NCBI GenBank assembly: GCA_001430755.1
Contig: CP013062.1
Coordinates: 90,001-122,000 of the forward strand
Source: Candidatus Peribacter riflensis
Lineage (GTDB): Bacteria; Patescibacteriota; Gracilibacteria; Peribacterales; Peribacteraceae
DNA: 32,000 bases
Direction of reading: 5' to 3'
The translations under genes were made by a program, and so were the position numbers. A model generated the notes under the pieces. The model saw only the letters and a list, made by a program, of their open reading frames with translations, did no database searches and was not told the origin of the DNA. Below are positions 810 through 26,525 of this stretch, piece by piece; positions within the stretch are counted from its first letter, which is position 1; the number at the start of each line of letters is the position of its first letter.

Positions 810-3800
810 CTAGTTTCCTAGGATAGGGGAACCATTTTCATCTTGCGAATAGAACTGGTAGGCGTTTGCTATCCATGCCTGCTTTCCGTTATCCGCTCCA
901 CTCGTGAATGTCGTCAACGACGGGTTGGCATAGAAGCAGCCTTCCCAATTATTCTCCCGCGCGCTGAATTCCGCAGCATTGGAACGGAGATTGGGCAGGG
1001 AAAATCGGTTTGCTATTACATCGCTAGGATTCTCCTTCTGTCTCCTCAAGAGTCCTGAGAAGAGAGATACGGCAAATCCGTGTTCATTGTAGGCATCGCG
1101 GAGTTCATCGGCAGTTTCAATTCCAAGCGCTGTAAAATAGTGTTGTGAAGCGACCATCTGTGCGGCAGCGGCGTCCCACGATCCCTGTTCGTAATTTTCG
1201 GGAGCGACGATGCTGAAAGCGTACTGCGCCGTGAGTGCGCGATTCCTGTCTCCGAATGTGCTTGAATGGAACGCGTACGAGTTCGCCGCGATGTTGGCGA
1301 ATGAGAAGTTGGGATCCTCGATTCCTTTGTACTTTCCTCCACCCAGCAGCTTGGAATCCGCCGCCGGATCCAGCGCGATCAAGGTCTGTACTCCGCCCGG
1401 TGTCCGCTTGCCAATTTCGTATGCCACGTATGCACCCCAGCTGTGGCCCACGAGGCAGATATTCTGCGTGCTGAAGCCAGCCGCCTGCAATTGATTGGTA
1501 ACCCATGTGCCCACGCTCTCAATCCAGCGTGAACCTTCCAGGCCGATGGGCGTGGCATTATCAGCTGCCCCGTCTCGCCAGTCCACGGTGGCGACTTGTG
1601 CGCCCAATGCATGAAGATTCTTAGTCAATTCCGCGATCTGACTACTCTCTTCACTATTCCCTCTCCCATGCACCACCACCCAGACGGGCTTGGAGGGATC
1701 GAGTTCTGACACTTTGTTGTAGTCAGTGATTCGTTGTCCGTTTTCAAACTCCGCCACACTCATGCTCACCGGCATTGCCACATCCCTCCCTTCGATACTG
1801 ACCATCCCCTCAATCTTCTGCGACCGATAGGGTTTGATTTCATACTGCACCGAAGTTGCAGAAGGCGCACAGTCAAATGTTGAATCGTCCCTCACGGTGA
1901 TCGTATATGTCCCCGGGAGCAGTGCGAGACTGACAGATTCCGCCGAGGCCACGGACTTGCCGGATGTGTAGGGTCCGACGGTGTGCCCGTCCACAGTAGT
2001 CCCCGAAAGAATCAGCGAGTAATTGGGGGGCAGTGAGGTATGTATGCCGCCGAAGGAGGGTTTGCCCGGCGAAGCCCACAGATTCACCATCTTTTTCTCC
2101 GTGAGCGTGAACGTCGAGGAGATCTTTTTCCCCGCCTCCGGCCTCATCGTGATTTCCCCCTTCATGTCTTCCCCTGCGGGGATCTCGCCGATTTGCTCGG
2201 CAATCGCCTCCGTCCCTTCCGCATCCGGTGCGTAATGTAGTGATGCGACCAGCTCCCTGCTCACTACATCAAGGTCCCCGTTCCCCGCTTCGATCACCTC
2301 GTCCACCCGGTCCGCCATCCGCTCCGCCTCCGCCGTGGTGATAGTGATCTGTGTGGTGCCATTGGCGAGTTGGCGTTCCCGCTGGATGTTGGAATCGTCG
2401 CTAATGGCTACGGACATCTGTGCCCGTGGATCGTTTTCCAGTCTGGCCCGGAGGACGAGGTCGGCGGCTCGTTGTCGTCTGCGCGCCTCGTTCTCACTCA
2501 CTTCCTGCTGCGTGTACCCGCGCGCGACGGTCCGGCGCTCCGCGAGGACAGAGACATTCACCTTGCCGTCGATTTCCGCGGACCAGATGCCGCTGCGCTG
2601 GCGCGCCGCATAGTTGTCGTGCAGGCGGGTGTCCTCCGAATCCTTGAAGACTAAGTCGTCGATGCGCTGGGCGACGATGCGGTTCGCTTCGGCGATGACC
2701 TGGTGCCGCGTGGGGAGCAAGACCCCGATCCCCTTGAGGCGTCCCACCGCCTCCCAGTAGTTCCGGGACGTGATGAGCTCCTCCAGCTCGCGGAAGAGCG
2801 GACCCTCGTTCTGCCCCTGCCGGATCGCGATGCAGGCCCGTACTCCCTTTTGCATGATTTCCGCCGCGGCGGCCGAGAAGATGTGCAGATCGCGGTCGAA
2901 CCGGTTGAGCTGGTCGAGGATGACGCCGTTGAGCCAGTCCCGCGTGTCGCCGCTCTGACCCTTGCTACCGCCGTCCTGCCACATGCGCATGACGGTTGCC
3001 TGGAAGTTTTCCGGCCGCCAGTCAGGATGCACTGTGAAGAAATACTCGTGCATCTTCTCGGGGGAGACGAAGAGGGATGATCGTTCGTAGAGATCCTGCG
3101 CCTGCGTCTCCCACAGGGCGCGGTTCACGCCGTCGATGATGGGATTCGTGCTCAGGTTTATCTGCTTTTCGAGCAGCAGTTCCAGTCGTTCCTGCTCCAG
3201 GAGTTCTGTTGTCTCCTCGGTCAGTGTCTGCGCGATCCGTTCGGCGGGTGTGCCGTCAGAGCCCAGTGCCGACAGAGAAGCGGATCGGGCCAGAGAAGCG
3301 CCGTCCGCGGACCACTGATCCTGGGCATCCATCACCGTGAGAACGCTGCCGTCCCACTGCACCGTGACGGTATCGCGCACCGTGCCGCTACGATCCTGCA
3401 GAGAGAACGCATACTGGCCCGGCGTGTTCGGCGTGAGTGTGAGGAGCGCCACCCCCGTTGTCGTGCCTCCGGGGTGCGAGTGCATTTCCTGTCCGTACAG
3501 CCCTCCCGTACTGGAGGTAATCACGCTCTCGTCATCCGGCGAGGTGAAGTGCAGCACGGCGCTCGAGCCGCGCACGCTCATGACCTTCACGTCGTAGGGG
3601 AGCGGGGTATCCACCAGGCGGCCGGTATCGTGAGACGTCAGATTGTTGAATGTGGATGTCACGCGTGCCGCGTTCTGGAGGGATTCACGGGTATTGTACG
3701 TTGCCGTCGCACTGTCGACCTGTCTCATGCCATTTGCGCCCCGGCTGAAGTATCGAAACTCGAGATCGCCGTGCCAGCTGCCATCTTCGGGAGCGTACAC

Positions 3801-15256: not shown

Positions 15257-16522
15257 CTAGCGGCGCCTCCGGAATCCCCGAAACGACCGTGTACGGCCCG
15301 AAGAGCGGAAGGGTGGACGGGAGGAGGGGGAGCGCGGCGGGCGGCTGGAGAAATCCGGACGGTGATCGTCGGGGGTCGGAGCCAGACGCTGCAGGAGGGG
15401 CGTGGGTTTGCGTTGCAGCGTGGAGCGGACGAGACGCTCGATGTCGCGGATGGATCCTTTCTGTTCCGCAGTCGCGAACGAGATGGCACGACCTTCACGT
15501 CCCGCGCGCGCGGTGCGCCCGATACGGTGCACGTAGTCGTTCGGATCATCGGGCAGATCGAAATTGATCACCACTTCGATCCCGGTCACGTCGATGCCGC
15601 GGGCTGCGATATCCGTGGCGATGAGAATGCGGTACTTACCGGTCTTGAATCCCTGCAGCGCCTCGCGCCGCTGGCTGAGGGAACGGTTGGCATGGATCTC
15701 GGCTGCGGCATGGCCCATGACGTTCACGGCCCGCGCGATCTTCTTGGCACCGTGCTTGGTGCGCGAGAACACAAGAATCGATCCGTGGTGTTCCTTGAGC
15801 AGCACTTCGAGCAGCGCAAGTTTTTCCATTTTGTGCACGATGAAGAGCTCCTGCTGAATGCCTTTGGCCGTCGTGCCCGAAGGCGCCACCTCGATGCGGA
15901 TGGGCAGCTTCATGTGGGCGTTGGCGAGCTTCATGATTTCCGAGGGCATGGTGGCGGAGAAGAGCATGGTCTGCCGTTCCTTCGGCACGTGCCGGAAGAT
16001 TGTTTCGATCTGCGGGCGGAAACCCATGTCGAGCATGCGGTCCGCTTCATCCAAGACGAGAATGTTCACTTCTTTGAGCGTGATGGTGCCGTGCTGCAGG
16101 TGGTCATTGAGGCGTCCGGGCGTGGCGATGACCACACGGGGGTTTCGGCGGATCATCTCGCGCTGCAGGTGCATGGAGGCTCCTCCGATGAGTACGGCGG
16201 TGCGAATGTTGAGCTGCGGTGCGAACGTGCGCAGAGACTCATCCACCTGGCTGGCGAGCTCGCGCGTCGGCACGATGACGAGGCCGCGGCCGGGTTTCTG
16301 CGCCAGTCGCTGGAGCATGGGGATGCCGAAAGCGAAGGTCTTGCCTGTGCCCGTCTGCGCGATGCCAACGATATCTTTCCCCTCGATGGCCGGCGGAATC
16401 GATTGCTGCTGGATGGGTGTCGGCGTCGTGAAATTACGGCTCGCAAGGATCCCGAGGATCTGCGGGGCGATACCGAGCGTGAGGAAGCTCGGGCTGGGTT
16501 TTTGGGGGACTGCGTCTGGCAT
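15257..16522 (-). CDS. DEAD-box ATP-dependent RNA helicase
   Basis: AQTGTGKT (I), PTRELA (Ia), VLDEADRML (II), SAT (III), HRIGRTARAG (VI), and a basic Arg/Ser/Pro-rich C-terminal tail. Confidence 0.92.
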   Translation of the reverse strand: MPDAVPQKPSPSFLTLGIAPQILGILASRNFTTPTPIQQQSIPPAIEGKDIVGIAQTGTGKTFAFGIPMLQRLAQKPGRGLVIVPTRELASQVDESLRTFAPQLNIRTAVLIGGASMHLQREMIRRNPRVVIATPGRLNDHLQHGTITLKEVNILVLDEADRMLDMGFRPQIETIFRHVPKERQTMLFSATMPSEIMKLANAHMKLPIRIEVAPSGTTAKGIQQELFIVHKMEKLALLEVLLKEHHGSILVFSRTKHGAKKIARAVNVMGHAAAEIHANRSLSQRREALQGFKTGKYRILIATDIAARGIDVTGIEVVINFDLPDDPNDYVHRIGRTARAGREGRAISFATAEQKGSIRDIERLVRSTLQRKPTPLLQRLAPTPDDHRPDFSSRPPRSPSSRPPFRSSGRTRSFRGFRRRR

Positions 16523-17126: not shown

Positions 17127-17175
17127 GCGGAGCGGGCACTGGTTGGTTTTGCCATGCCTACAATGGCTCCACCGG

Positions 17176-20100
17176 TTACATCGAGAGAAGCGCCAGCCCG
17201 ATGATGATGAAGAAGCGCGTATCCCCGTAGGTCTCGGGGTCGGCGGAGATCGGCGCTCCGTCGCCGATGAAGATCTGCAGGTCCTGCACCAACTGTCCGA
17301 TGGTGAGGAAGGTATTGCGGTACGTGCAGTCGGTGTCGCAGGCACCCGGTTCGGTGTCGCTGTTGCGGTTGCCGTCATCGCAGCGTTCCTGCGGGCGTCC
17401 GGCGGGATTGGCGTTCACGATGCCGTCGCCGCACGAGGAGGGGGTGTCTTCGGTCTCCGTCACGGTTTCTGGAGCAGGAAGGGGATCGTCAGCTGAGGGA
17501 TGGTCGGCATCATTGGGGGCAGGGGCCGGGAAACAGGGGAGTTCTCCGTGAAAGGTTCCATTGATCGGGAACCCTTCACAGACGGTCTGGGCGATTGCGT
17601 CGAAGCACACGCCAACACTGTCACTGCTCACGCTGCAGAACCCGGTGGTCGGAGGGGGCCCGATAAGAGGAATTTCTGTCTCATCTGTTCCGTCCGCCTC
17701 GTTCGTTTCTGCGATCTCCGCCGCATGCCGTTGCTCGCAGATCGTATCCTTGCTCGGCGAACACACCTTGCTGGCACTGTACCGCTTGCGCCCATCGTCG
17801 GACACGAAGGATATATACGAAAATACCGATTGATCTTTGCAGTTCTGTTCCTGCGTCACCGCGCATTTGGTTCCGTCAATCGGGCAGCAGGCCACTTTCT
17901 CATTCGCAGTCTTTCTGCAGTGGGCTTCGAAGGCCGGGCTGCACGAGGCGTAGTCGGTGAACACGGTGGAACACGCGGTCCGCACGTCTTCTTTTCTCAC
18001 CGTCTGGCAGTAGGGGAACGAATCGGAGACCCGGCGCTTCACGCAGCAGGCGACTTCCTGCACCGCTGCGCAACTGACGCCGTCACAGGAGTTGACCTCG
18101 TTGATCGGTTTCTCATCGTCGCAGTCTTCGCGTTTCTGGTTCTGCTTGCAGAAACCGCCTTCCTTCGGGCAGCAGGCGACAGGAGTCTCTTCGACCACCT
18201 CCTCACAGCTCTGCGGGGGGTTCGTACAGGTGGAAAATCGTTTCTCTCCCACACAGGATCCGGCCGGCAGCAGCTGGCAGGTCCACAGGCCGCTCGCGGG
18301 TTTTGCGCCGCAGCAGGCGACCATGGTGTCGGGGCACTGCTGCTTCCAGTTCTCCGGGCAGAATGCAGCCTCGCCGAGGCTCTTCACGTTCGGTCCGTTG
18401 ACACACTGGCTCTCGGCAACCGCCGCGCAGCCCCACGGAGAAAATTCCGATTCGCGCGCGCAGCAGGCCACCTGCTTTTCGGGCGGCTGACACTTGCGCT
18501 GGACTTCGGCGGCATCTGTGGGGCACGCGTCGCCTTCGATCTGCCTACTCTGTTCGTCGCAGGGGGACTGAGCGGTACACGTATAGGCGTTATCCGTTTT
18601 TTTGCAGCATGGAACGAGCTTTATGGGACCGCAGGCGGATGGAGCGTTGAGATTCGCGGGACAGGTGGTCGACGCGATCGGCCGCATGAGGGAGCCGGTG
18701 CAGGACGCTCTGGAGACAGAAGGGCTGCACGACCAGTCGGGATCTGTTTCTGAATCACGCTTGCAGCAGGCGACAGTGTTCGCAGGTGTGCAGGTCTGCG
18801 CGGTGCAGGTATCTGGAGGATCGAAAACGTCACTGTAGAACACGTTCACGCCGTTCTGGCTGTCACACTTCTGGCCCTGCGCGAGGCTGAGGTGCCAGCA
18901 GGTTCCCTTGATAGAACAGCACCCCACCTGACGTTCGAAAGGTTTGTAACAATTGGCGCCAGCGGGGCAGGTCTTACCAAAATCCGAATTCTTCTGGCAC
19001 TTTGCTTCCTTCTCGGGCTTGGGGAAGTTCGTGCAGGTCCATGTGGGGTTGCGTGCAGTGTCCTCTCCATTACTTTCGATGGGGCAGCAGGCGACGGTCT
19101 CTTCCGACTGTTTGCACGTTTCCTGCCAGTTGTCGGGACAGGTATCGGCAGATGCCTTGCCGAGCGATACCTGGTTCGTCGGATTGTTGCACTCGTTTAC
19201 ATTCTTCACCGCGCAGGTCCACGGTGCACTCTCTGCTGTCCGCTCGCAGCACGAAACTTTCTCTTCGCTGCCGCCGCACCGCTCCTGCAGTGCTTTTCCT
19301 GTCGGACACTTGTCTCCGGAGAGCTGTTTTCGTCCCTGCTGTTTACATTCCTCCGCAGTGGTGGGAGCCGGGAACGTACTATCGACACAACCATAGCGAT
19401 TATTTGCTAGCGTGATGCAGCAGGGAACGTATTTTCCGCACAGAGAGGGTGAGCAGGACCGTGCGTCAGACTTGAATGTGCCGCCCCACGTGTTGCAGTC
19501 CGTCTTCGACACCGTGCTGCAGCCTCCGTTGATCTTTTCGCTGCAGCACGGCCTGAGGCAGAAATCCGCTGGTGGCGAAGCATCCGTACCCTCTACGAAG
19601 TTTCCGGCGTTCGCGCTGGTATTGCACTCGTTCCGGCGCATCTTTTTGGGGCCGTCGGCGGTGCAGCACCAACCCTGCGGGCTGCAGAAGTCATCGTTGC
19701 AGGTGCGCATTCCCAGCTGCGCAGACGGCACGAAGGATCCCGCGAACGAGGAGCAGACCTCCGCAGGCGACTGGCCCGCCGTACCGTAGCCGCTGTTGTA
19801 GCTGATCCAGAGCGAAGGATTCCCTGCGAATGTGCCGTTCTTCACGTTGCAGCAGCAGCCCCCTTCCTGCGTCTTGGCGTTGCACTTGTCTGCGCAGTTT
19901 CCGGGGATGACGGTTCCGGGATGGTAGATGGTGCCGCCCACGTTCTGCATGCCGCACGAGGGGAGGGGCGAGCCGTCGGCATTGCCCCCGTGCGTGCACT
20001 GCCAGGAGGTGGTGTACGGAGGGGCGCCCCCTGCCGTGGGTGTCGAGACCATGCGGCAGCAGGTTTTGGTCTCGGGCGCTGGGCAGCAGCACACGCCTTT

Positions 20101-21870
20101 GGTGACGGGCTTGGGATCGAGCGCGACAGTGATGTCCGTTCCCTCGATCTGCCACGAGCACTCCGACGCATTCTGCTTCCAGATGCACCCCAGGTAGGTC
20201 TCGCCCGATGAGCCGCCGGGAACGGGAATCGTGGCGCAGTCGCTCTGCGCGCCGCACTGGCTGGAATTCTGCACGGCGAAGGCGCCGCTCTTGCTGCTGC
20301 ACTGGGCGGCGGTCAGGTTCTCGATCGTCTTCTGCACTGCATTGGTGCAGCAGAGGATGGTGGAACAGGGAGTGGCGTCCGTGACGGGGAAGCCTCCTCT
20401 GCTGCTGCACGCTGCTGCCAGGAGCTGTTCGGTCCGCCTCTGGAGAGGATTCATGCAGCAGGAAATCTTCTCTGGAGGGGAGGTGTTGCAGCCCGCAGTG
20501 CACTGCGTAGCCGGTTGCATGGAGCCCGGAGCGCACTTTCTCACAACACCGTCGACCCAAATATCTTTTTCCCGTTTGCATTCCGCGGCAGATTCCCCCA
20601 CGCACCGGGCATGCCTGCTGTCGGGATTCGTGAAGGCGGGCATCAGGTATGTCTGGCAGTCCGTGCGGCAGCACTTCTGAGCCTCGGGGGTCGGGCAGTA
20701 TACGGGAGACTGGCTGAAAAACTGCGCGAAGAGCCGGCCCCACTTTGATTGGGCGTAGCCGTTTTCTTTGCACACCCCGTTGCGGCCATAGGGTTCGACC
20801 CCATGCGCGCGGCACTCGTCGGGACAGACGTTATCATTGCAAAAGTGCAGCGAACCGATGTTGTAGCAGCAGGAACGTTTTTCAGAATCCGCGCACCGGC
20901 TCGAGACACTGGAGGAGGATGAAGAAGAGGGTAGTTGTGTCTGGGAAGAGGATGACTCTGCAGGAGAGGAGGATGCGTCGGGCTGGCAGGGGAAGCCGGC
21001 ACAGATTCCATTGCGGACACTGGCTGCGGAGCCGGCCGCCGGACTGCCGTGGATCGCGCACGCATCCGCCGGCATATTATCAAAGCAGCTCGTTCCGAGG
21101 CAGCAGGAAAGCAGCTCTTGAGAGGAGGAAGAGGAAGATACCGAAGAAGAGGAAGACGGCTGGATCGAATCCGGCGAGCTGCTGCCGGGAGTGACGGGGA
21201 GCACACAGGTGTTGCTTTGCGTGTCGCAGGAGACACCGGGGCAACAGACGAGGCTGGGATTGGTGTAAGAGCCGGACGTGTTACAGCAGGGAATCACCTG
21301 CGCGCAGGGATACGTGCCGGCTGGAAAGCACGCTCCCGCCCCGGGGCATGCCGACACGCCGTAGAGGGCCATACACTGTTGTTGCGGAGAACCGCTGCTC
21401 ACGCCCCCGGTTGACGACGAGGAATCCAGGCCGCCGGTCCCTCCGGAAGAGGCAGACCCATTCGATCCGCAGTTCTGTGCGGGGGGAGTGGCGCAACTCC
21501 CGTCGGGCATGCAGACGGTGCCGGCGCCGCACGTGAAGCCGCCCGGGCAGGTCACGCCGGCAACCATGTTCACCCAGCAGGAATCCTGGACGCTGGTGAT
21601 CCAGACGCAGGTGCCCTGCTGTTGCCCTTCTTCTTTCTGGCATCCGCCGTACATGTGGCCGCTGTACCAGTCGTACCACTGCGACCACCACGTGCATTCC
21701 GATACGAAGGCGCAATCGCAGTTCGTCTCGCAGACATCCCCCAGTTGCCCGGTCCCGTACAAGACCGTTGCCGTCAGTGCCGCGGAGGAATCTCGGCGGT
21801 CGATCAGTGAAACGGAGGCGGCCAGAGCGACAAGGAGCGCGCAGCCGATGATGAGCCGGGACCTTTGCAT
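17176..21870 (-). CDS. Giant secreted cysteine-rich repeat protein (1564 aa) with C-terminal tail anchor
   Basis: Signal peptide MQRSRLIIGCALLVALAASVS. Ser-rich linkers. Many degenerate modules start with a CC doublet (VACC/VSCC/VPCC ... C ... C ... C ... C). The C-terminal SCGDGIVNANPAGRPQERCDDGNRNSDTEPGACDTDC resembles the CGNG..EECDDGN..DGC cysteine-rich repeat. The extreme C-terminus is hydrophobic (RFFIIIGLALLSM). Confidence 0.9.
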   Translation of the reverse strand: MQRSRLIIGCALLVALAASVSLIDRRDSSAALTATVLYGTGQLGDVCETNCDCAFVSECTWWSQWYDWYSGHMYGGCQKEEGQQQGTCVWITSVQDSCWVNMVAGVTCPGGFTCGAGTVCMPDGSCATPPAQNCGSNGSASSGGTGGLDSSSSTGGVSSGSPQQQCMALYGVSACPGAGACFPAGTYPCAQVIPCCNTSGSYTNPSLVCCPGVSCDTQSNTCVLPVTPGSSSPDSIQPSSSSSVSSSSSSQELLSCCLGTSCFDNMPADACAIHGSPAAGSAASVRNGICAGFPCQPDASSSPAESSSSQTQLPSSSSSSSVSSRCADSEKRSCCYNIGSLHFCNDNVCPDECRAHGVEPYGRNGVCKENGYAQSKWGRLFAQFFSQSPVYCPTPEAQKCCRTDCQTYLMPAFTNPDSRHARCVGESAAECKREKDIWVDGVVRKCAPGSMQPATQCTAGCNTSPPEKISCCMNPLQRRTEQLLAAACSSRGGFPVTDATPCSTILCCTNAVQKTIENLTAAQCSSKSGAFAVQNSSQCGAQSDCATIPVPGGSSGETYLGCIWKQNASECSWQIEGTDITVALDPKPVTKGVCCCPAPETKTCCRMVSTPTAGGAPPYTTSWQCTHGGNADGSPLPSCGMQNVGGTIYHPGTVIPGNCADKCNAKTQEGGCCCNVKNGTFAGNPSLWISYNSGYGTAGQSPAEVCSSFAGSFVPSAQLGMRTCNDDFCSPQGWCCTADGPKKMRRNECNTSANAGNFVEGTDASPPADFCLRPCCSEKINGGCSTVSKTDCNTWGGTFKSDARSCSPSLCGKYVPCCITLANNRYGCVDSTFPAPTTAEECKQQGRKQLSGDKCPTGKALQERCGGSEEKVSCCERTAESAPWTCAVKNVNECNNPTNQVSLGKASADTCPDNWQETCKQSEETVACCPIESNGEDTARNPTWTCTNFPKPEKEAKCQKNSDFGKTCPAGANCYKPFERQVGCCSIKGTCWHLSLAQGQKCDSQNGVNVFYSDVFDPPDTCTAQTCTPANTVACCKRDSETDPDWSCSPSVSRASCTGSLMRPIASTTCPANLNAPSACGPIKLVPCCKKTDNAYTCTAQSPCDEQSRQIEGDACPTDAAEVQRKCQPPEKQVACCARESEFSPWGCAAVAESQCVNGPNVKSLGEAAFCPENWKQQCPDTMVACCGAKPASGLWTCQLLPAGSCVGEKRFSTCTNPPQSCEEVVEETPVACCPKEGGFCKQNQKREDCDDEKPINEVNSCDGVSCAAVQEVACCVKRRVSDSFPYCQTVRKEDVRTACSTVFTDYASCSPAFEAHCRKTANEKVACCPIDGTKCAVTQEQNCKDQSVFSYISFVSDDGRKRYSASKVCSPSKDTICEQRHAAEIAETNEADGTDETEIPLIGPPPTTGFCSVSSDSVGVCFDAIAQTVCEGFPINGTFHGELPCFPAPAPNDADHPSADDPLPAPETVTETEDTPSSCGDGIVNANPAGRPQERCDDGNRNSDTEPGACDTDCTYRNTFLTIGQLVQDLQIFIGDGAPISADPETYGDTRFFIIIGLALLSM

Positions 21871-21987
21871 GAACCGATGTGCGTGACTTTTTGCAGCATA
21901 ACGAGATCTGCGGCTTCTGTCGCTTGGACAGACATGGCCGATTGTTGCTAAAACACTATCGTCGTACCGCCGTCCCCGATGGGACCC

Positions 21988-22371
21988 TCACCGCCGCACG
22001 AATGTGTCTTCGTTCTGCGTGTCGATGCAGCCCGGCACGATGTCACTGGGAAAATCGTACGCATTCGCGATCTCGCAATTCATCATGCCGTTGCCGTCGA
22101 AGGCCAGTTCCCACCCACGGGCCGTCCTGGCTGCGAACCACATGCCGCCGCCCATTTCGCCCTCGAAGCGCACGGTACCGCGCGCGAATGCATTGGTCTC
22201 TTTCTGCACTTCGATGGCAAAGGTGCCAACAGGCCGGCTGTATTTTTCACTGAAGGCCTGGGCGACTGCCTCGCGCACGGGGCCGGCCGTTTCATCATTA
22301 TTCCGCCAGAGAAACGCTGCCGCGAGGAGGAGCAGGATGCCGAGGGCGCCGGGCAAAAGGTATTTTTTCAT
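21988..22371 (-). CDS. Small secreted/anchored hypothetical protein (127 aa)
   Basis: N-terminal signal/anchor MKKYLLPGALGILLLLAAAFLW. Host-like GC. No recognisable family. Confidence 0.7.
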   Translation of the reverse strand: MKKYLLPGALGILLLLAAAFLWRNNDETAGPVREAVAQAFSEKYSRPVGTFAIEVQKETNAFARGTVRFEGEMGGGMWFAARTARGWELAFDGNGMMNCEIANAYDFPSDIVPGCIDTQNEDTFVRR

Positions 22372-22454: not shown

Positions 22455-22820
22455 TTAAAAACTCATCCAAAAAAACCAGGCACCAATGAGAACAATAACG
22501 CCGCCCCACAGTACCTGCCTGCTCTTGAACATCTGGGCTTTTCGATGAACACGATCAGGAAAACAAATTTTTTCAATTCCTTTCAATAACGTAGTCCATC
22601 CTAAAATCGTGATGGCAATCCGCCAGTCGGCGGTCCAGATATTGTGTGAAACGACGGTAGCCAAGCCCAACAAAAAGGTAATGTAACCGGTAGAAACCGT
22701 AATGGTTTTATTGTCGGTATACTCGATCACTCTCCCTAAAAACTTGGCGCCAACAGACAGTGCACCGAGAATCATAAAAAGACTTCCCCAAAATCGTGCT
22801 AGAAAAATTGTGATTTCCAT
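22455..22820 (-). CDS. Four-helix membrane protein (121 aa), hypothetical, low-GC
   Basis: Four hydrophobic segments. Visibly AT-rich codon usage compared with the core genes. It lies just outside the distal direct repeat of the tRNA-Asn island. Confidence 0.7.
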   Translation of the reverse strand: MEITIFLARFWGSLFMILGALSVGAKFLGRVIEYTDNKTITVSTGYITFLLGLATVVSHNIWTADWRIAITILGWTTLLKGIEKICFPDRVHRKAQMFKSRQVLWGGVIVLIGAWFFWMSF

Positions 22821-22877: not shown

Positions 22878-22893
22878 TGGCTCCCCCGGCTGG
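22878..22893 (-). repeat. Direct repeat DR1 = exact copy of the last 16 nt of tRNA-Asn (CCAGCCGGGGGAGCCA); putative distal att site
   Basis: Plus-strand tggctcccccggctgg is identical to 26324-26339. Confidence 0.85.
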
Positions 22894-23057
22894 CCGTCTC
22901 CGCCTCCGGCTTCGCCGAGCCATTCCCATCCGTCGCCATCCTGTTTTTACGCACATCGAACTACCGAGCAAATCTCGGCGTAGTTCGATGAGTGAAACGA
23001 ATCGAACGAAGACGGATGGCTCCGCTGACTGGGTGTTTTCAGAACTCTTCCGAATAT

Positions 23058-24704
23058 TTAGCCTCCTGAAGACTCACCAGCGGGAAACAAATCTTCTGCA
23101 ACGCTTCGTATCGTAAATTCTGAGAAAAACCTTCTTTCTAAGAGTTTACCGTTTTTTAATCTTCCACTTATTCCGTTCCCATTTAACCCACCCAGCCTGT
23201 TAGTTATTGTTGTTGGCGTCACCCCCAGCCTTTTTGCCCAATAGAGTTTCAGTCCGTACTTTTGGTCATGATAGTCAAATGAGAGGGAATCGTCCGCAAG
23301 TGGCTCGGGGTACAATGCCCAATCAGTTACTTGCTTGGTGCGTGTTAACGCAGGTTTTTCCTCTCTCCTTGATTCTCTCAGTACTGGTTTCGGATAAAAA
23401 ACTGCCACAAGTCCATTTCTTGTTTTTCCTCTGATTCCCTCTGTAGTCCGAAGGCTTTCGGTGATGATCTTGTGTTCAGCATTGAGAATCTTTCGCCAAC
23501 CCTTCCTTGTTCTTAGTTCTATTCCATTGATTATAACAACTCCATCATCGTTGGCGACGGGAAGATTTGCAACCGACTCACCAACATTAGATGGCATGCA
23601 AAGCATATCCGCCATTTCCTCCATCTCGAGCATTCCTAATCTTGACGTTTTCCCTGTTAATAAACTGAATAACTCGAAAGTGCCACCCCAATCTTCAATT
23701 TGGGCACTTCTGAATCGGGTAACTCCAAAATGCAGTAATTCACCTTTTGTACGGATACCCAAAGCTTCCATTTTTCCCCTAATGTCACATTTTGTTGATT
23801 CACTGATTTTCGGCAAATCGATAATCCTAAAGAATTCCTCCATACTTTCCGCGGTTAGATTTTTTGGGATTTTTCCTGTCAGATTAAAATACATTTTCTT
23901 TGCCTTTCCGAATTCTTTAAAATCAAATTCCCTAAATTTATTAACTCCCTTTCGACGAGCAGTTACCCAATCGGTTACTCCGTTTATTCTCAATAGTTCT
24001 TTACATCGAGCCTTCGTATTTTCGTGAGCGGTGGGTAGATGAAGAATAGCAGCAATTTCAAGACCATCTCTCCGAGATAATTTTGATGCTTGTCCCGTTA
24101 GTACTCGAAATAATGCTGCACCATGATATCCATCGAATTGAACTCTCCTAAATTTGTTAGTTCCAATATTGCGCATTGTGGCCACATCAATTATTCCTGC
24201 CTTTTCCTCAAGCATCGCAACGAATCGAATTCTTGTCTCCTCAGACATTTCAGGCAGATGGAGTACATCAGCTAGTTCCTCCAGATTTTCTACTCGCAGT
24301 TGTGTGAGAGCCCTACCCGTTACAGCCCCGCAAAAAGCAATTCCTTTTCCTATTCCCTGGAAAGATAATGCTGCAAACCTACTCACTCCACACAATCTCA
24401 ATTCAACTCTATCCGATATCTTGTTCTCTTTGAGTCGTTGCAACAACTGTTGTTTCCATAATTGCGGGTCTTCTTTTGGTAGAAGTAAATCCATGCATAA
24501 GCGTCTGACATCTTCTTCGACGAAAGCACGGGCCACATCTCCTTTGTTCGTTACTCCTTGTATGTATGGGGCATTTCTCAATCTTGCATAAAGAATTGAA
24601 GGCTTAATTTTTAGAGCTTCGGCCCAGGCGTTGATATGCCCATATAGAATGGTCTCCTCAGATGACGCCTCTGGTGTCAGTTCTGCTTCTGACATACTAT
24701 TCAC
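23058..24704 (-). CDS. Repeat protein (548 aa): 4 tandem ~72-aa repeats plus 3 excisionase/MerR-like HTH-type motifs; function unknown
   Basis: The repeats share G(V/T)x(K/R)FR..F..G....F..LTG.....L......E.A..L.LP. Three motifs have the form W(A/R)(E/K)xL...P..I..RL....I.G....G.....F, at the N-terminus, after the repeats and at the C-terminus. The GTG start overlaps the helicase stop (GTGA); alternative ATG at 24695. Confidence 0.85.
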   Translation of the reverse strand: MNSMSEAELTPEASSEETILYGHINAWAEALKIKPSILYARLRNAPYIQGVTNKGDVARAFVEEDVRRLCMDLLLPKEDPQLWKQQLLQRLKENKISDRVELRLCGVSRFAALSFQGIGKGIAFCGAVTGRALTQLRVENLEELADVLHLPEMSEETRIRFVAMLEEKAGIIDVATMRNIGTNKFRRVQFDGYHGAALFRVLTGQASKLSRRDGLEIAAILHLPTAHENTKARCKELLRINGVTDWVTARRKGVNKFREFDFKEFGKAKKMYFNLTGKIPKNLTAESMEEFFRIIDLPKISESTKCDIRGKMEALGIRTKGELLHFGVTRFRSAQIEDWGGTFELFSLLTGKTSRLGMLEMEEMADMLCMPSNVGESVANLPVANDDGVVIINGIELRTRKGWRKILNAEHKIITESLRTTEGIRGKTRNGLVAVFYPKPVLRESRREEKPALTRTKQVTDWALYPEPLADDSLSFDYHDQKYGLKLYWAKRLGVTPTTITNRLGGLNGNGISGRLKNGKLLERRFFSEFTIRSVAEDLFPAGESSGG

Positions 24705-26194
24705 TGTTGCTCTGGCTCAATATCATCTCTACGCACATACCTTCGTGGAATGCGGAAAAACCCTTTTTCATCAAATTGAGGTCTCTCTCTCCTGATCTGC
24801 TCGAGAAGGTTTATGCGTCTAATAAGAGTTAGCTGAAGAGGTGGATTTTTTGCTTCAATGTGAGCACGTATCTGCGCAACAAGATCTCCTTCAGGACTCC
24901 CGCCATTCGTTTCTCCTTCTCTCTCGCCACGCAATCTCTGAAGCTCTTGCCATCCGCCAATAATGTCTGTGAACAACGCCGGGCGGAACTTATTGGATTT
25001 TGGGACTATTTGCACGATAACAGCATCATTTTTTTTCCATCCTCTTTTCCAGAGAGAACTACCTGGACGGATTTTACGCAAAATGCGTCCATGCCTTTGC
25101 TCAAGTTTATTGAGCGATTTTGTTGGGTAGGCATCGATGAGCAATTTTGCATTCTCTAAATTCATGCCTCGTCCTCCCATCTCGCACAGGACAATCACCT
25201 GCACCTCTCCATCTCGAAAACCATCAAGGGCAGTCTCAACTTCATGCGAATAATCTTCACCGGTAAGCCCAACTATTGTGAGTTCCGGGAAGCGTCCCTG
25301 GAATGATGCTGTAGTGGCAGCAACCATATCCTTACTAGGAACGTATACGAGAGTTGGACAATTTTTTCGGATATTTTCGGGAAGGAGATGCCCATATACA
25401 TCTGGAACTGCTCTATGTAATTCCGCATGTCTCCATGCCGCTTGTAATATTTTAGGATCGTAGTCACCCTTTCTAATCTTAAGGTCTGATTCCCTAATTT
25501 GTGATTCGTAAATGAAAAGTTCCGGCACAACATTAATGCGTTGTTTCATTGCTTCTAAAAGTGGGAGTTCATGAACAACGGGGCCATACCTATCAGAAAT
25601 ATGTCTGCCATCGGGCCACTCTTTTGTTGCTGTGAATCCTGCTGTAATTCGTGGATTGAGTGCATCAATGATTTTTGAACGCAAACTCGTTAGGAATCGA
25701 TCTACCTCATCGACGACACAGAGGTCGATTGCTTGGGAGGGGAGATATTTATGAAGCTCCCTTCGTGAATGTGCCATCTGTAAGGCATGAATTCCCGCTA
25801 CGATGATTGGTGGTTCAAATTCTCTGCGATTTCCGGACCAAATTCCTGTTTCAATTCCCAACGATTCAAATTGCTTTCGAATTCCACTAACAACTGTTCG
25901 ACCTTCGGTGATCACAAGATCCTTTCGATCGCTATTAATCCCAAGCTGGTCTTTGGCTGCTTGTGATGCAGACACTGCAGCTATCTCGACAAGCGTCTTT
26001 CCCGAACCACAGCTTGCAACCGCACACATTCGTTCTCGATTCAGGAGTAATCCTTCATATAATTCCTTCATCGCTTCTTGTTGATGATCTTCAAGACGAA
26101 TTCCGCTCTGTTTTGGGTCGGAATGAGGCAGGTATTCAAAACGGCTAGCAAACTGTTCCTGAAATGCCTCAAGGTACCCCGGGAGTTGAGCCAT
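24701..26194 (-). CDS. Superfamily-2 DEAD/DEAH-box helicase (ResIII/RadD-like), island-encoded
   Basis: LEDHQQEAMKEL, Walker A ASCGSGKT, DEVD (motif II), FTAT (III), KGDYDPKIL and QRHGRILR (VI). AT-rich codon usage. Confidence 0.88.
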   Translation of the reverse strand: MAQLPGYLEAFQEQFASRFEYLPHSDPKQSGIRLEDHQQEAMKELYEGLLLNRERMCAVASCGSGKTLVEIAAVSASQAAKDQLGINSDRKDLVITEGRTVVSGIRKQFESLGIETGIWSGNRREFEPPIIVAGIHALQMAHSRRELHKYLPSQAIDLCVVDEVDRFLTSLRSKIIDALNPRITAGFTATKEWPDGRHISDRYGPVVHELPLLEAMKQRINVVPELFIYESQIRESDLKIRKGDYDPKILQAAWRHAELHRAVPDVYGHLLPENIRKNCPTLVYVPSKDMVAATTASFQGRFPELTIVGLTGEDYSHEVETALDGFRDGEVQVIVLCEMGGRGMNLENAKLLIDAYPTKSLNKLEQRHGRILRKIRPGSSLWKRGWKKNDAVIVQIVPKSNKFRPALFTDIIGGWQELQRLRGEREGETNGGSPEGDLVAQIRAHIEAKNPPLQLTLIRRINLLEQIRRERPQFDEKGFFRIPRRYVRRDDIEPEQQ

Positions 26195-26200
26195 ATTTTT

Positions 26201-26228
26201 ATTCTAAACTGATATGAATACTTGTCAA
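26201..26228 (-). promoter_or_regulatory. Near-consensus sigma70 promoter of the island operon; predicted leaderless transcript
   Basis: The minus strand reads TTGACA (26228-26223), a 16-nt spacer, then TAGAAT (26206-26201). Only 6 nt (AAAAAT) separate the -10 from the ATG at 26194. It lies directly inside DR2. Confidence 0.55.
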
Positions 26229-26233
26229 TAAGT

Positions 26234-26246
26234 TGGCTCCCCCGGC
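26234..26246 (-). repeat. Direct repeat DR2 = exact copy of the last 13 nt of tRNA-Asn (GCCGGGGGAGCCA)
   Basis: Plus-strand tggctcccccggc is identical to 26324-26336. It is preceded on the minus strand by the nested hairpin CTGCGA-AGC-TCGCAG. Confidence 0.75.
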
Positions 26247-26323
26247 CCGTGCTTCGCTCTGCGAGCTTCGCAGGGCCTCGCGGCTATTACACAGGTGTTG
26301 AACTGGTTGATTGTTGTTAGAGA

Positions 26324-26398
26324 TGGCTCCCCCGGCTGGACTCGAACCAGCAACCTTGGCGTTAACAGCGCCCTGCTCTACCATTGAGCTACAGGGGA
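26324..26398 (-). tRNA. tRNA-Asn (anticodon GTT), CCA encoded
   Basis: Manual cloverleaf. Acceptor stem TCCCCTG/CGGGGGA (one G-U pair). D arm GCTC-AATGGTA-GAGC. Anticodon arm GGGCG-CTGTTAA-CGCCA (one G-A mismatch at 27-43). 5-nt variable loop. T arm GCTGG-TTCGAGT-CCAGC. Discriminator G, then CCA. 75 nt in total. Confidence 0.9.
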
Positions 26399-26426
26399 AC
26401 GTTGATGGAAAGAACTGCCGGTTGCT

Positions 26427-26525
26427 CCCTGCCCTGAGCGACTCCGCATGCGGAGGAGTCGAAGGGTACCATTGAGCTACCCGCCTTCGTCCCGCGACTG
26501 CGGGACTACGGACGGGCAGGCAGGG
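26427..26525 (-). other. Cloverleaf-like structured region containing a tRNA D-arm-derived fragment (not a canonical tRNA)
   Basis: The 14-nt stretch 26467-26480 is identical to 26379-26392 of tRNA-Asn. Three hairpins (26489-26506, 26464-26482, 26439-26461) are enclosed by a 7-bp closing stem (26427-26434 with 26514-26525). There is no anticodon/T-loop consensus and no CCA. Confidence 0.3.

Follow-up and report, generated by a model that had tools for sequence, protein, structure and literature searches.

Introduction

In Dehalococcoides, low-GC genomic islands lie in tandem downstream of ssrA. Each is bounded by a 20-bp repeat of the 3' end of the gene, and a conserved, element-borne 15-bp motif is found just upstream of the repeat (PMC3146451). 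Their recombinase is a CcrB-like large serine enzyme whose open reading frame (ORF) always overlaps attL and ssrA, and fifteen of the islands have no integration module and were interpreted as cis-mobilizable elements that moved by accretion (PMC3146451). Here we describe an island of this kind downstream of the tRNA-Asn gene of Candidatus Peribacter riflensis. It lies in a 32,000-nucleotide stretch of contig CP013062.1 (positions 90,001 to 122,000), which we call the window and whose own numbering we use throughout. Part of the island is a 3.2-kb unit carrying genes for a superfamily 2 (SF2) helicase and for a partner protein with multiple helix-turn-helix (HTH) modules. With moderate confidence, we read this as an integrase-less unit of a tRNA-Asn accretion array, mobilized in cis or in trans and installed by a recombinase encoded elsewhere, whose cargo is a DNA-targeted SF2 translocase.

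P. riflensis is a bacterium of the candidate phyla radiation (CPR; Peregrinibacteria) with 1.25-Mb genomes. CPR bacteria have very small genomes, and few mobile elements or defense systems have been characterized in them. The P. riflensis genome paper reports 46 tRNAs in 1.25 Mb and no CRISPR-Cas (PMC4736985).

The architecture of the island has a close published precedent, whereas its helicase/poly-HTH cargo belongs to no described family. As at Dehalococcoides ssrA, there are tandem low-GC units, 3'-end repeats, and an element motif near the repeat, and many units have no integrase. In a relative, Peregrinibacteria CG1_02_54_53 (locus L012), a serine recombinase ORF also runs across attL into the RNA gene. 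However, the targets are true tRNA genes (Asn, with others in relatives, making five kinds) rather than the gene for tmRNA, and the host is a CPR bacterium. The units are as small as 3.1 kb and two genes, each with its own promoter, and the window has no recombinase. The foreign-type site shares only 7 nt with its target, and the cargo is the helicase/poly-HTH pair and not dehalogenase genes. A preliminary description of the locus had allowed for an undescribed two-gene module. This holds for the cargo family, which is uncharacterized, but not for the island architecture, which was described for ssrA (PMC3146451) and is accompanied by a recombinase of that style in L012.

Two other systems invite comparison. 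Prochlorococcus islands and tycheposons share a streamlined genome, variable islands next to tRNAs, scattered partial tRNA repeats, degenerate elements, and helicases among their hallmarks (10.1101/2020.12.28.424599). However, an integrase of their own, in most cases a tyrosine recombinase, is part of the definition of tycheposons, and the unit in the window has none (10.1101/2020.12.28.424599). Also, their helicases are DnaB- or primase-linked replication proteins, whereas the one described here is a ResIII-type SF2 helicase with an HTH-array partner. Integrons, like the array in Peribacteraceae STB_179 (locus L006) described below, are one-directional arrays of small cassettes that end in short sites, with a fixed attachment point and variable content. 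An integron was nevertheless rejected, because neither the window nor L006 has an IntI gene by the attachment site, upstream of the tRNA, the sites mimic tRNA ends and show no attC-type folding or hairpin potential, and the cassettes have their own TTGACA promoters.

Copies of the tRNA-Asn terminus delimit a chain of units

The tRNA-Asn gene (anticodon GTT; 26324-26398, minus strand) was found by ARAGORN and scored 66.9 bits with the Rfam tRNA model. Its 3'-terminal 16 nt (26324-26339) served as the reference copy of the repeat. On the plus strand this 16-mer, the complement of the tRNA-Asn 3' end including CCA, reads TGGCTCCCCCGGCTGG. Exact copies begin at 26324 and 22878, and a copy of its first 13 nt begins at 26234. 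These same-orientation repeats (16/16 at 22878 and 13 nt at 26234) were the starting point of the preliminary description, and they hold up as a real attachment-type footprint at the tRNA 3' end. With up to 3 mismatches allowed, the 16-mer has 4 matches in the window, against 0.54 expected. The terminal 12-mer CCGGGGGAGCCA, with up to 1 mismatch, also has 4 matches, against 0.30 expected, and 0/100 shuffles reached 4. All four 12-mer matches are on the strand of the tRNA (minus): one is the tRNA terminus itself, and the others lie downstream of its 3' end. Together, five same-strand copies of the terminus lie at or downstream of the tRNA, and there are none elsewhere in the window. Because the matches exceed chance, share a strand, and are confined to this side of the tRNA, the motif is not a dispersed generic sequence, which had been raised as an objection at the outset. 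The 3' terminus of tRNA-Asn serves the array as its attachment site.

Read in the orientation of the tRNA, these copies partition the interval. The tRNA gene is followed by a GC-rich 77-bp spacer unit (26247-26323, minus strand; GC 0.545) and copy S1 (26234-26251, minus strand), which matches the tRNA end at 14/18 positions. The terminal 13 nt of S1, GCCGGGGGAGCCA, are exact, and S1 is the left junction of the helicase unit. Then come the promoter, the helicase gene, the partner gene, and site X (23017-23046, minus strand), a 30-mer that begins 11 nt past the partner gene stop and forms the right end of the helicase unit. After that are a GC-rich 123-bp spacer unit (22894-23016, minus strand; GC 0.561), copy S3 (22878-22895, minus strand; 17/18 positions identical to the tRNA end, 16 of them exact), three ORFs, and copy S4 (17164-17181, minus strand). 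In S4, positions 17164-17175 read CCGGTGGAGCCA in tRNA orientation, an 11/12 match. S4 is likely the distal end of the variable interval, and a conserved DEAD-box gene (15257-16522) follows it and closes the interval.

Site X reads AGTTCTGAAAACACCCAGTCAGCGGAGCCA in tRNA orientation. It has only the terminal GGAGCCA in common with the host tRNA, and its 23017-23032 portion reads TGGCTCCGCTGACTGG, a 13/16 match to the tRNA terminus. Site X and S4 were not among the copies listed in the preliminary description. The repeats that it used as boundaries, S3 among them as the left one, are real, but the bounds of the helicase unit are S1 (26234) and site X (23017-23046). The helicase unit proper is 23017-26233, and it is one member of a chain of units that extends from the tRNA to 17164.

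The 77-bp segment had been suggested to be a second, nested or tandem event. A tandem event is borne out by homologous 104-bp units that lie in tandem at the same place, before the helicase, in L012, although the homology of the 77-bp unit plus S1 to these units was judged by eye only. A BLAST comparison of the 77-bp and 123-bp spacers with the other loci found nothing beyond the repeats.

RNA folding gave z scores near 0 for the sites, none of which folded better than shuffled sequence; only the real tRNA did. This argues that the sites act at the DNA level, and tRNA-like RNA elements at mRNA 3' ends were ruled out on the same grounds.

The helicase unit has a foreign composition and encodes two proteins

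The cargo of the helicase unit is foreign in composition. Its GC content is 0.434, compared to 0.60-0.61 in the flanks, and GC at third codon positions (GC3) is 0.36 in the helicase gene and 0.35 in the partner gene, compared to 0.74-0.81 in host genes (~0.78). The sharp GC drop that had been noted between the repeats is real, but low GC overruns the left repeat at 22878 by ~480 bp, reaching ~22380 and spanning a 121-aa ORF.

S1 and site X enclose only a promoter and two genes, without recombination or transfer genes. The promoter, TTGACA-16-TAGAAT (26201-26228, minus strand, reading from 26228 to 26201), is of the sigma-70 type, with 11/12 positions matching, and starts 5 nt inside the S1 copy. 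This agrees with the near-consensus promoter originally placed just inside the repeat, and it would be expected to drive the helicase operon. TTGAC(A/T) directly follows sites in L006, L026, and L013 as well.

The same site ends unrelated cassettes in a relative

L006 is syntenic with the window upstream of tRNA-Asn, where the two share a methyltransferase (MTase)-like protein that is 60% identical. After the tRNA, L006:4665-15016 contains eight same-strand, promoter-bearing cassettes. Their cargo includes small unknown proteins, TspO, a dehydrogenase-like protein with an ACT domain, and the helicase pair. Each cassette is followed by a 28- to 30-nt site ending in GAGCCA, and a TTGAC box occurs 0-10 nt after each site. 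The sites fall into three types, with four of type X, three of type Y, and one of type Z. The four type X sites are AGTTCTGAAAACACCCAGTCTGCGGAGCCA, and 23017-23046 of the window matches this at 29/30 positions even though the two helicases are only 69% identical. Unrelated L006 cassettes bear the same sites without having the helicase pair in them. The type Y site looks as if GAGCCA had been joined, at GCC, to the 3' end of another tRNA.

The DEAD-box gene that closes the interval in the window is 83% identical to L006:15051-16298, which also closes the L006 array but is inverted relative to the tRNA. This inversion implies that the distal edge of the island has been rearranged.

A large serine recombinase abuts the orthologous tRNA-Asn gene

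L012 is the closest relative that we fetched, and its MTase-like protein is 80% identical. ARAGORN reports no tRNA-Asn there because a group I intron (Rfam RF00028, 78.4 bits, 1489-1793) splits the anticodon loop of the gene (L012:1465-1842). Directly downstream, on the opposite strand, the tRNA is abutted by an ORF (1690-3294) for a 534-aa large serine recombinase (Resolvase, 5e-14; Recombinase, 9e-12; TP901-1 integrase, 7e-9). The recombinase frame runs across the junction into the tRNA antisense, where it encodes the peptide WLPRLDSNQQPIG, and its tail reaches the intron antisense. The element that carries it is 7.7 kb long and is bounded by a 15-nt repeat, GGGGAGCCAATTCTT. Past this element are two tandem 104-bp units ending in ACGGGTCGGGGGAGCCA, and then a helicase (40% identical) and partners. 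Therefore, a predicted cognate recombinase is present at the same attachment site in a relative, although it is only its presence that this establishes.

The window, L006, and L012 have an orthologous MTase-like gene and tRNA-Asn upstream, and their downstream content is entirely different. Helicase identity to the window (69% for L006 and 40% for L012) runs opposite to host identity (60% and 80%), which indicates cassette exchange rather than vertical descent.

Another large-serine-recombinase-like ORF (L015:339-1661) is 28% identical to the L012 enzyme and lies ~8 kb upstream of a tRNA-less helicase/partner pair.

The helicase and its poly-HTH partner

The first gene of the unit (24701-26194, minus strand) encodes a 497-aa SF2 helicase/translocase with Pfam matches to ResIII (2.6e-16, 60.4 bits) and Helicase_C (4.6e-12, 46.6 bits). 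In 38 relatives, G65, K66, and T67 of the Walker A motif (GSGKT) and D162 and E163 of the DExx motif are invariant. The AlphaFold model had a predicted local distance difference test (pLDDT) score of 85, and the closest Foldseek matches were RadD, XPB, SauUSI, and HsdR (E about 1e-15), with sequence identity to these restriction/repair fold matches of only 13-21%. By AlphaFold and Foldseek, the fold is plain SF2, with no extra catalytic domain and no recombinase. Searches of PADLOC, NCBIfam, and PDB sequences found generic helicase matches only, the best one in PADLOC (1.5e-7) being partial and to the helicase region of a type IV restriction system. In PHROGs the helicase matched phrog_16, "DNA helicase" (8e-33). 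It is therefore like the type IV enzyme SauUSI, HsdR, type ISP enzymes, and RadD/XPB in the fold class of its core, and the weak PADLOC match points the same way. However, unlike SauUSI, HsdR, and type ISP enzymes, it lacks a nuclease or phospholipase D domain, and neither a methyltransferase nor a known type of specificity subunit accompanies it.

The second gene (23058-24704, minus strand) encodes a 548-aa protein if read from a GTG that overlaps the helicase stop. In public gene calls the start is ATG 24695, 6 nt past the helicase stop, which gives 545 aa; with that proviso, the two coupled genes of the preliminary description are confirmed. The helicase and the partner each have an identical counterpart among P. 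riflensis proteins. The protein has three ~73-aa HTH modules (residues 17-74, 380-444, and 465-541) and a central repeat region (about residues 79-370) that is common to the L006 partner. It belongs to no family in Pfam, PADLOC, PHROG, or NCBIfam, and a word-index search with it returned only the protein itself. A HMMER search of 1.84 billion representative proteins found 247 matching cluster representatives. These relatives carry 1-13 copies of the ~73-aa module, with the consensus LP.AD..GF....G.RYGT...W...LG.S...I..RL.....I.GK...G....FY.E..VR..C.DLL. Pfam matches in the family are of HTH type (HTH_8, HTH_50, HTH_10, DUF739, and NUMOD1), with HA in one member, and the module profile compared with PDB gave HTH matches only, which were weak and nonsignificant. 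This partner family was previously unannotated, and its ~73-aa HTH module is new and absent from Pfam.

The combination of an SF2 helicase with tandem, short, helical DNA-binding repeats is also found in HA (PF03457) helicases, and the L007 partner matches HA (7.9e-10). However, the partner in the window is below Pfam thresholds (no PF03457 match), the module is not in Pfam, and helicase and repeats are usually encoded by two coupled genes.

The preliminary description asked whether the gene pair co-occurs across genomes. It does: at nearly every locus, a partner gene begins directly after the helicase gene or overlaps it, and long family members are an N-terminal helicase fused to a C-terminal module array. 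Also, the helicase C terminus ends in a motif that starts an HTH module. Because the genes adjoin across loci, the helicase end shares the module motif, and fusions exist, the two proteins probably form one machine, an SF2 translocase with an HTH array. We scanned 11 partners and 9 long fused relatives and found HTH and helicase domains only, with no nuclease, HUH, DDE, or tyrosine or serine recombinase domain. A known defense system was rejected as an identity for the pair, since PADLOC-DB 2.0 made no assignment and had no match for the partner.

Two loci have extended sets of ORFs after the helicase: ORFs of 296, 374, 316, 493, and 88 aa at L039:11478-16110 and of 435, 437, and 964 aa at L041:11462-16970, all without Pfam matches. 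Partner-module motifs occur in repeat families of the L039 and L041 DNA, which points to local expansion of HTH-module arrays.

Related pairs at other tRNA genes

A word-index database contained 45 relatives of the helicase, and we added thirty loci from genomes and metagenomes. Of the helicases with an identity of 46% or more to that of the window, most are just downstream of a same-strand tRNA gene in Peribacterales (Asn, Gln, Glu, Ala, or Gly). A same-strand tRNA occurs within 1 kb upstream at 7 of ~25 distinct loci. The expectation is ~0.018 per locus, based on 46 tRNAs in 1.25 Mb (PMC4736985), and we estimate a binomial P of ~3e-7.

At tRNA-Gln (L003 and L007), the helicase is 258 bp past the tRNA. 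In L007 the two genes are the sole content between repeats of ~31 nt that have one mismatch and a spacing of 3139 bp; in the repeat, 20 nt come from the tRNA-Gln end and 10 nt from the sequence that follows it. The L009 helicase is roughly 120-160 bp from tRNA-Glu. At tRNA-Ala (L011), three copies of the tRNA end plus downstream sequence precede the helicase. At one tRNA-Gly (L025) there is a remnant unit and then a full unit, and at another (L026) the helicase is 47 bp away and TTGACA comes directly after CCA. At tRNA-Asn, in L006 and L013, the helicase is within or after other cassettes. The full L025 unit is bounded by TTCCA[GA]TAACCCGCTCCA, and the remnant holds the 3' end of a partner gene and then its site. 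This remnant shows that the helicase unit carries the site at its right end, and that units both accumulate in tandem and decay. Therefore, in two relatives (L007 and L025) the pair is bounded by repeats of the 3' end of its own tRNA, with no recombinase seen alongside, and distal-side repeats match the local tRNA in the window, L007, and L025.

The preliminary description had also considered that the pair might be found at non-tRNA loci with host-like composition. L041, L039, and L043 are indeed not at tRNAs, yet their clusters are low-GC islands too, and the clusters are low in GC in every genome checked. Introns might hide tRNAs, but no tRNA 3' halves turned up when we searched around the non-tRNA loci.

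The sites have some neighboring sequence in common. The motif AGTTCnGAAAAC is found before the tRNA mimic at Asn-type and Ala-type sites, and the 12-mer AGTTCGGAAAAC, which is related to the L006 type X site, precedes the tRNA-Ala mimic in L011. The palindrome GGCTTATATAAGCC or a close variant occurs 8-11 nt past tRNA-like sites at five independent loci, usually with a T-run after it (L006:12362; L011:9749 and 9904; L012:9789; L025:588; L061:456). It resembles a terminator and could be one that travels with the site, or it could be a protein-binding site.

Searches for a recombinase, an empty site, and a circle

The cassette had been described as free of recombinase genes, and our searches agree. 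Pfam analysis of every large ORF in the window found no tyrosine or serine recombinase or DDE transposase domain, and the helicase fold is also negative. Among the scanned ORFs of the window, L006, and L012, the only recombinase domain was that of the L012 serine recombinase, and the precomputed Pfam lists of L003, L039, L041, L043, L057, and L059 include no recombinase.

Several candidate identities were rejected. For an autonomous integrative element (a prophage, an integrative and conjugative or mobilizable element, a tycheposon, or a phage satellite), there is no recombinase of its own in the large window ORFs. The helicase family is absent from IMG/VR viral contigs, viral contigs have no site X, and phage records have no partner; this, together with the identity of only 22-26% to phage helicases, led us to discard a phage or plasmid origin. 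Viral contigs with the tRNA-Asn 18-mer mostly had full phage tRNA genes and were uninformative. RecA-type Campbell integration by homology is unlikely, because site X shares only 7 nt with the tRNA.

How the unit may have been installed

We propose that the interval from tRNA-Asn to ~17164 is a site-specific insertion hot spot built by serial, accretion-type integration at the tRNA 3' end. The unit at 23017-26233 would be a 3.2-kb AT-rich cassette consisting of a promoter, the helicase gene, the coupled poly-HTH gene, and a terminal 30-nt mimic of the tRNA-Asn end. Crossover with the chromosome would take place inside the last ~7 nt (GGAGCCA). A crossover there would explain why the tRNA is intact and why the foreign-type site lies distal; the tRNA-proximal side would keep host sequence, and the distal side would keep the site of the element. 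The unit would have been installed, and could be remobilized, by a recombinase from another element, possibly acting in trans, and the best candidate is a large serine recombinase like the one that abuts tRNA-Asn in L012. With its recombinase supplied by another element, the unit would be cis-mobilizable or satellite-like. A circle of the helicase unit would join ...CAGTCAGCGGAGCCA to ACTTATTGACAAG, and a composite circle would join ...GGCCAGCCGGGGGAGCCA to TCTCTAACAAC. The empty site would read tRNA ...GGGGGAGCCA joined to TCCGTCTTCG, ATATTTCTATG, or TTGTAGGCATGG.

Several observations weigh against this proposal. No recombinase gene is visible in the 32-kb window, and a tblastn search with the L012 serine recombinase found no homologue there. 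The 24/24 P. riflensis contigs with an identical flanking protein also carry the island, and none has an empty tRNA-Asn site. Small helicase-bearing contigs had no terminal overlaps and no circular junction. Identity to the tRNA starts at differing points among the sites (16, 13, 12, and 9 nt from CCA), and the L007 and L011 repeats extend 10-17 nt beyond CCA (28-31 nt of near-identity, with one mismatch). Because of this, a single fixed crossover point is not demonstrated. The element family uses five different tRNAs, which is awkward for a single trans-acting, site-specific enzyme. Helicases that are at most 41% identical, and those of L041, L039, and L043, are not near tRNAs. The window and L012 both have a tRNA, ~100-bp unit(s), and a helicase, which could mean long residence and not recent arrival. 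As for the cargo, the single-sequence AlphaFold model of the partner had a pLDDT of 33. A defense role in particular is weakened by the lack of a nuclease or other effector domain, and by PADLOC matches that were to generic helicases only.

We considered three other explanations. It is possible, though unlikely, that a complete integrative element lost its recombinase by deletion and left a decayed, immobile remnant, with the pair fixed in place and the extra repeats as scars. Every P. riflensis contig examined has the island, the 77- and 123-bp spacers and the L025 partner-gene remnant show that arrays decay, and L012 shows what a complete, recombinase-bearing neighbor looks like. However, independent decay would not repeatedly leave exactly a promoter, a helicase, a partner, and a site, as in L007 and L025. 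Both ORFs are intact behind a near-consensus promoter, and the 29/30 conservation of site X, compared to 69% helicase identity, implies selection on the site. It is very unlikely that the pair is a resident, fast-evolving chromosomal operon near tRNAs, with repeats that came from other insertions or from local tandem duplication. It would explain why, in L011 and L012, the tRNA is separated from the helicase by repeats and inserted DNA, why the site copies of these two loci carry an apparent native tRNA terminator, why the window and L012 have the same order of tRNA, ~100-bp unit(s), and helicase, and why the pair is also found at ordinary chromosomal positions. It does not fit a GC3 of 0.35 in a genome at 0.78, low-GC clusters in every genome checked, helicase similarity that is discordant with host relatedness, distal repeats in the window, L007, and L025 that match each locus's own tRNA, or a partner-gene remnant before a site in L025.

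We also regard it as very improbable that the element is self-mobilizing, with the helicase and poly-HTH protein targeting tRNA 3' ends and integrating there without a canonical recombinase. The pair is the only coding content of minimal repeat-bounded units and the one recurrent cargo in arrays at five tRNA species, AGTTCnGAAAAC before the tRNA mimic could be a protein-binding site, and the modules vary in number and sequence as expected of retargetable DNA binding. However, no nuclease, HUH, DDE, or tyrosine or serine recombinase domain was found in the helicase, the 9 fused relatives, or the 11 partners. Unrelated L006 cassettes have the same sites without the pair, L012 has a conventional recombinase at the same site, and many family members are away from tRNAs. 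A broader idea is a long shot: that the pair either moves autonomously without a recombinase or is a retargetable machine for DNA recognition, whose variable module array would read a long address (for example, the tRNA mimic plus AGTTCnGAAAAC) and load the SF2 translocase onto it. Installation by a recombinase from another element remains the reading that we prefer.

The data suggest that Peribacterales keep a hypervariable tRNA 3'-end insertion site filled with very small, self-promoted cassettes, and that a DsiB-style (Dehalococcoides) large serine recombinase operates at the same site in a relative. If the recombinase-free or retargetable reading were true, it would mean new integration chemistry at tRNA 3' ends, or modular DNA targeting like that of transcription activator-like effectors that is native to CPR bacteria.

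Possible function of the pair

In our model, the HTH module array binds DNA and tethers or directs a double-stranded DNA translocase resembling XPB, RadD, and HsdR. The pair would most likely act against invading DNA as an island-borne defense, with element replication or maintenance being less likely. We favor defense because of the hypervariable island, the diversifying repeats, the tandem paralogues, the restriction-like translocase fold, and the CRISPR-less host. If the module array is a modular DNA reader, it is relevant to defense biology and DNA-targeting tools. If it is not, a known island type is still extended to a new phylum, with testable attachment sites.

The same island mechanism could instead carry a replication or maintenance module, a function to which we give a modest chance. 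The HTH array would bind an origin, the helicase would unwind it, and a 3.2-kb circle would persist or be packaged with a helper. The nearest phage matches are replication-module helicases (phrog_16, 8e-33), with 22-26% identity to the Corynebacterium phage BFK20 helicase, Streptococcus phage helicase-region records, and others. The pair is the minimal content of a mobile-looking unit, and tycheposons and similar elements carry helicase-type replication modules (10.1101/2020.12.28.424599). However, there is no primase, polymerase, or Rep protein, and a repeat search of the region reported no iteron-like repeats. IMG/VR has no members of the family, phage records have no partner, and there were no circular contigs. 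The fold is as near restriction translocases and repair helicases as anything replicative, and the tandem partner paralogues in some genomes fit diversifying recognition better than origin binding.

Other features of the interval

The 123-bp spacer holds an inverted repeat (22947-22964 and 22980-22997) with 18-nt arms that are 83% complementary and a 15-nt loop, and there is no T-run after it. Beyond it, outside the 22878 repeat, is the 121-aa ORF (22455-22820, minus strand; GC 0.429, GC3 0.47), which encodes a predicted membrane protein. Two strain-specific ORFs with host-like GC (17176-22371, minus strand) follow, of 127 aa (21988-22371) and 1564 aa (17176-21870), the second of which stops exactly at S4. 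None of these three ORFs has a homologue in any fetched relative. The 127-aa and 1564-aa ORFs have no Pfam match, the 1564-aa ORF also has no NCBIfam match, and the two are probably an older unit of the array.

On the other side of the tRNA-Asn gene, the noncoding block upstream of it (26399-26520) is 91% identical to L012 over 77 nt. It has no Rfam family match. Within the block are an imperfect palindrome, gactccgcatgcggaggagtc, and 14 nt (26467-26480) that repeat the D-arm region of the tRNA exactly (26379-26392). The block may serve as a promoter or leader, or it may be a small RNA or a degenerate tRNA fragment.

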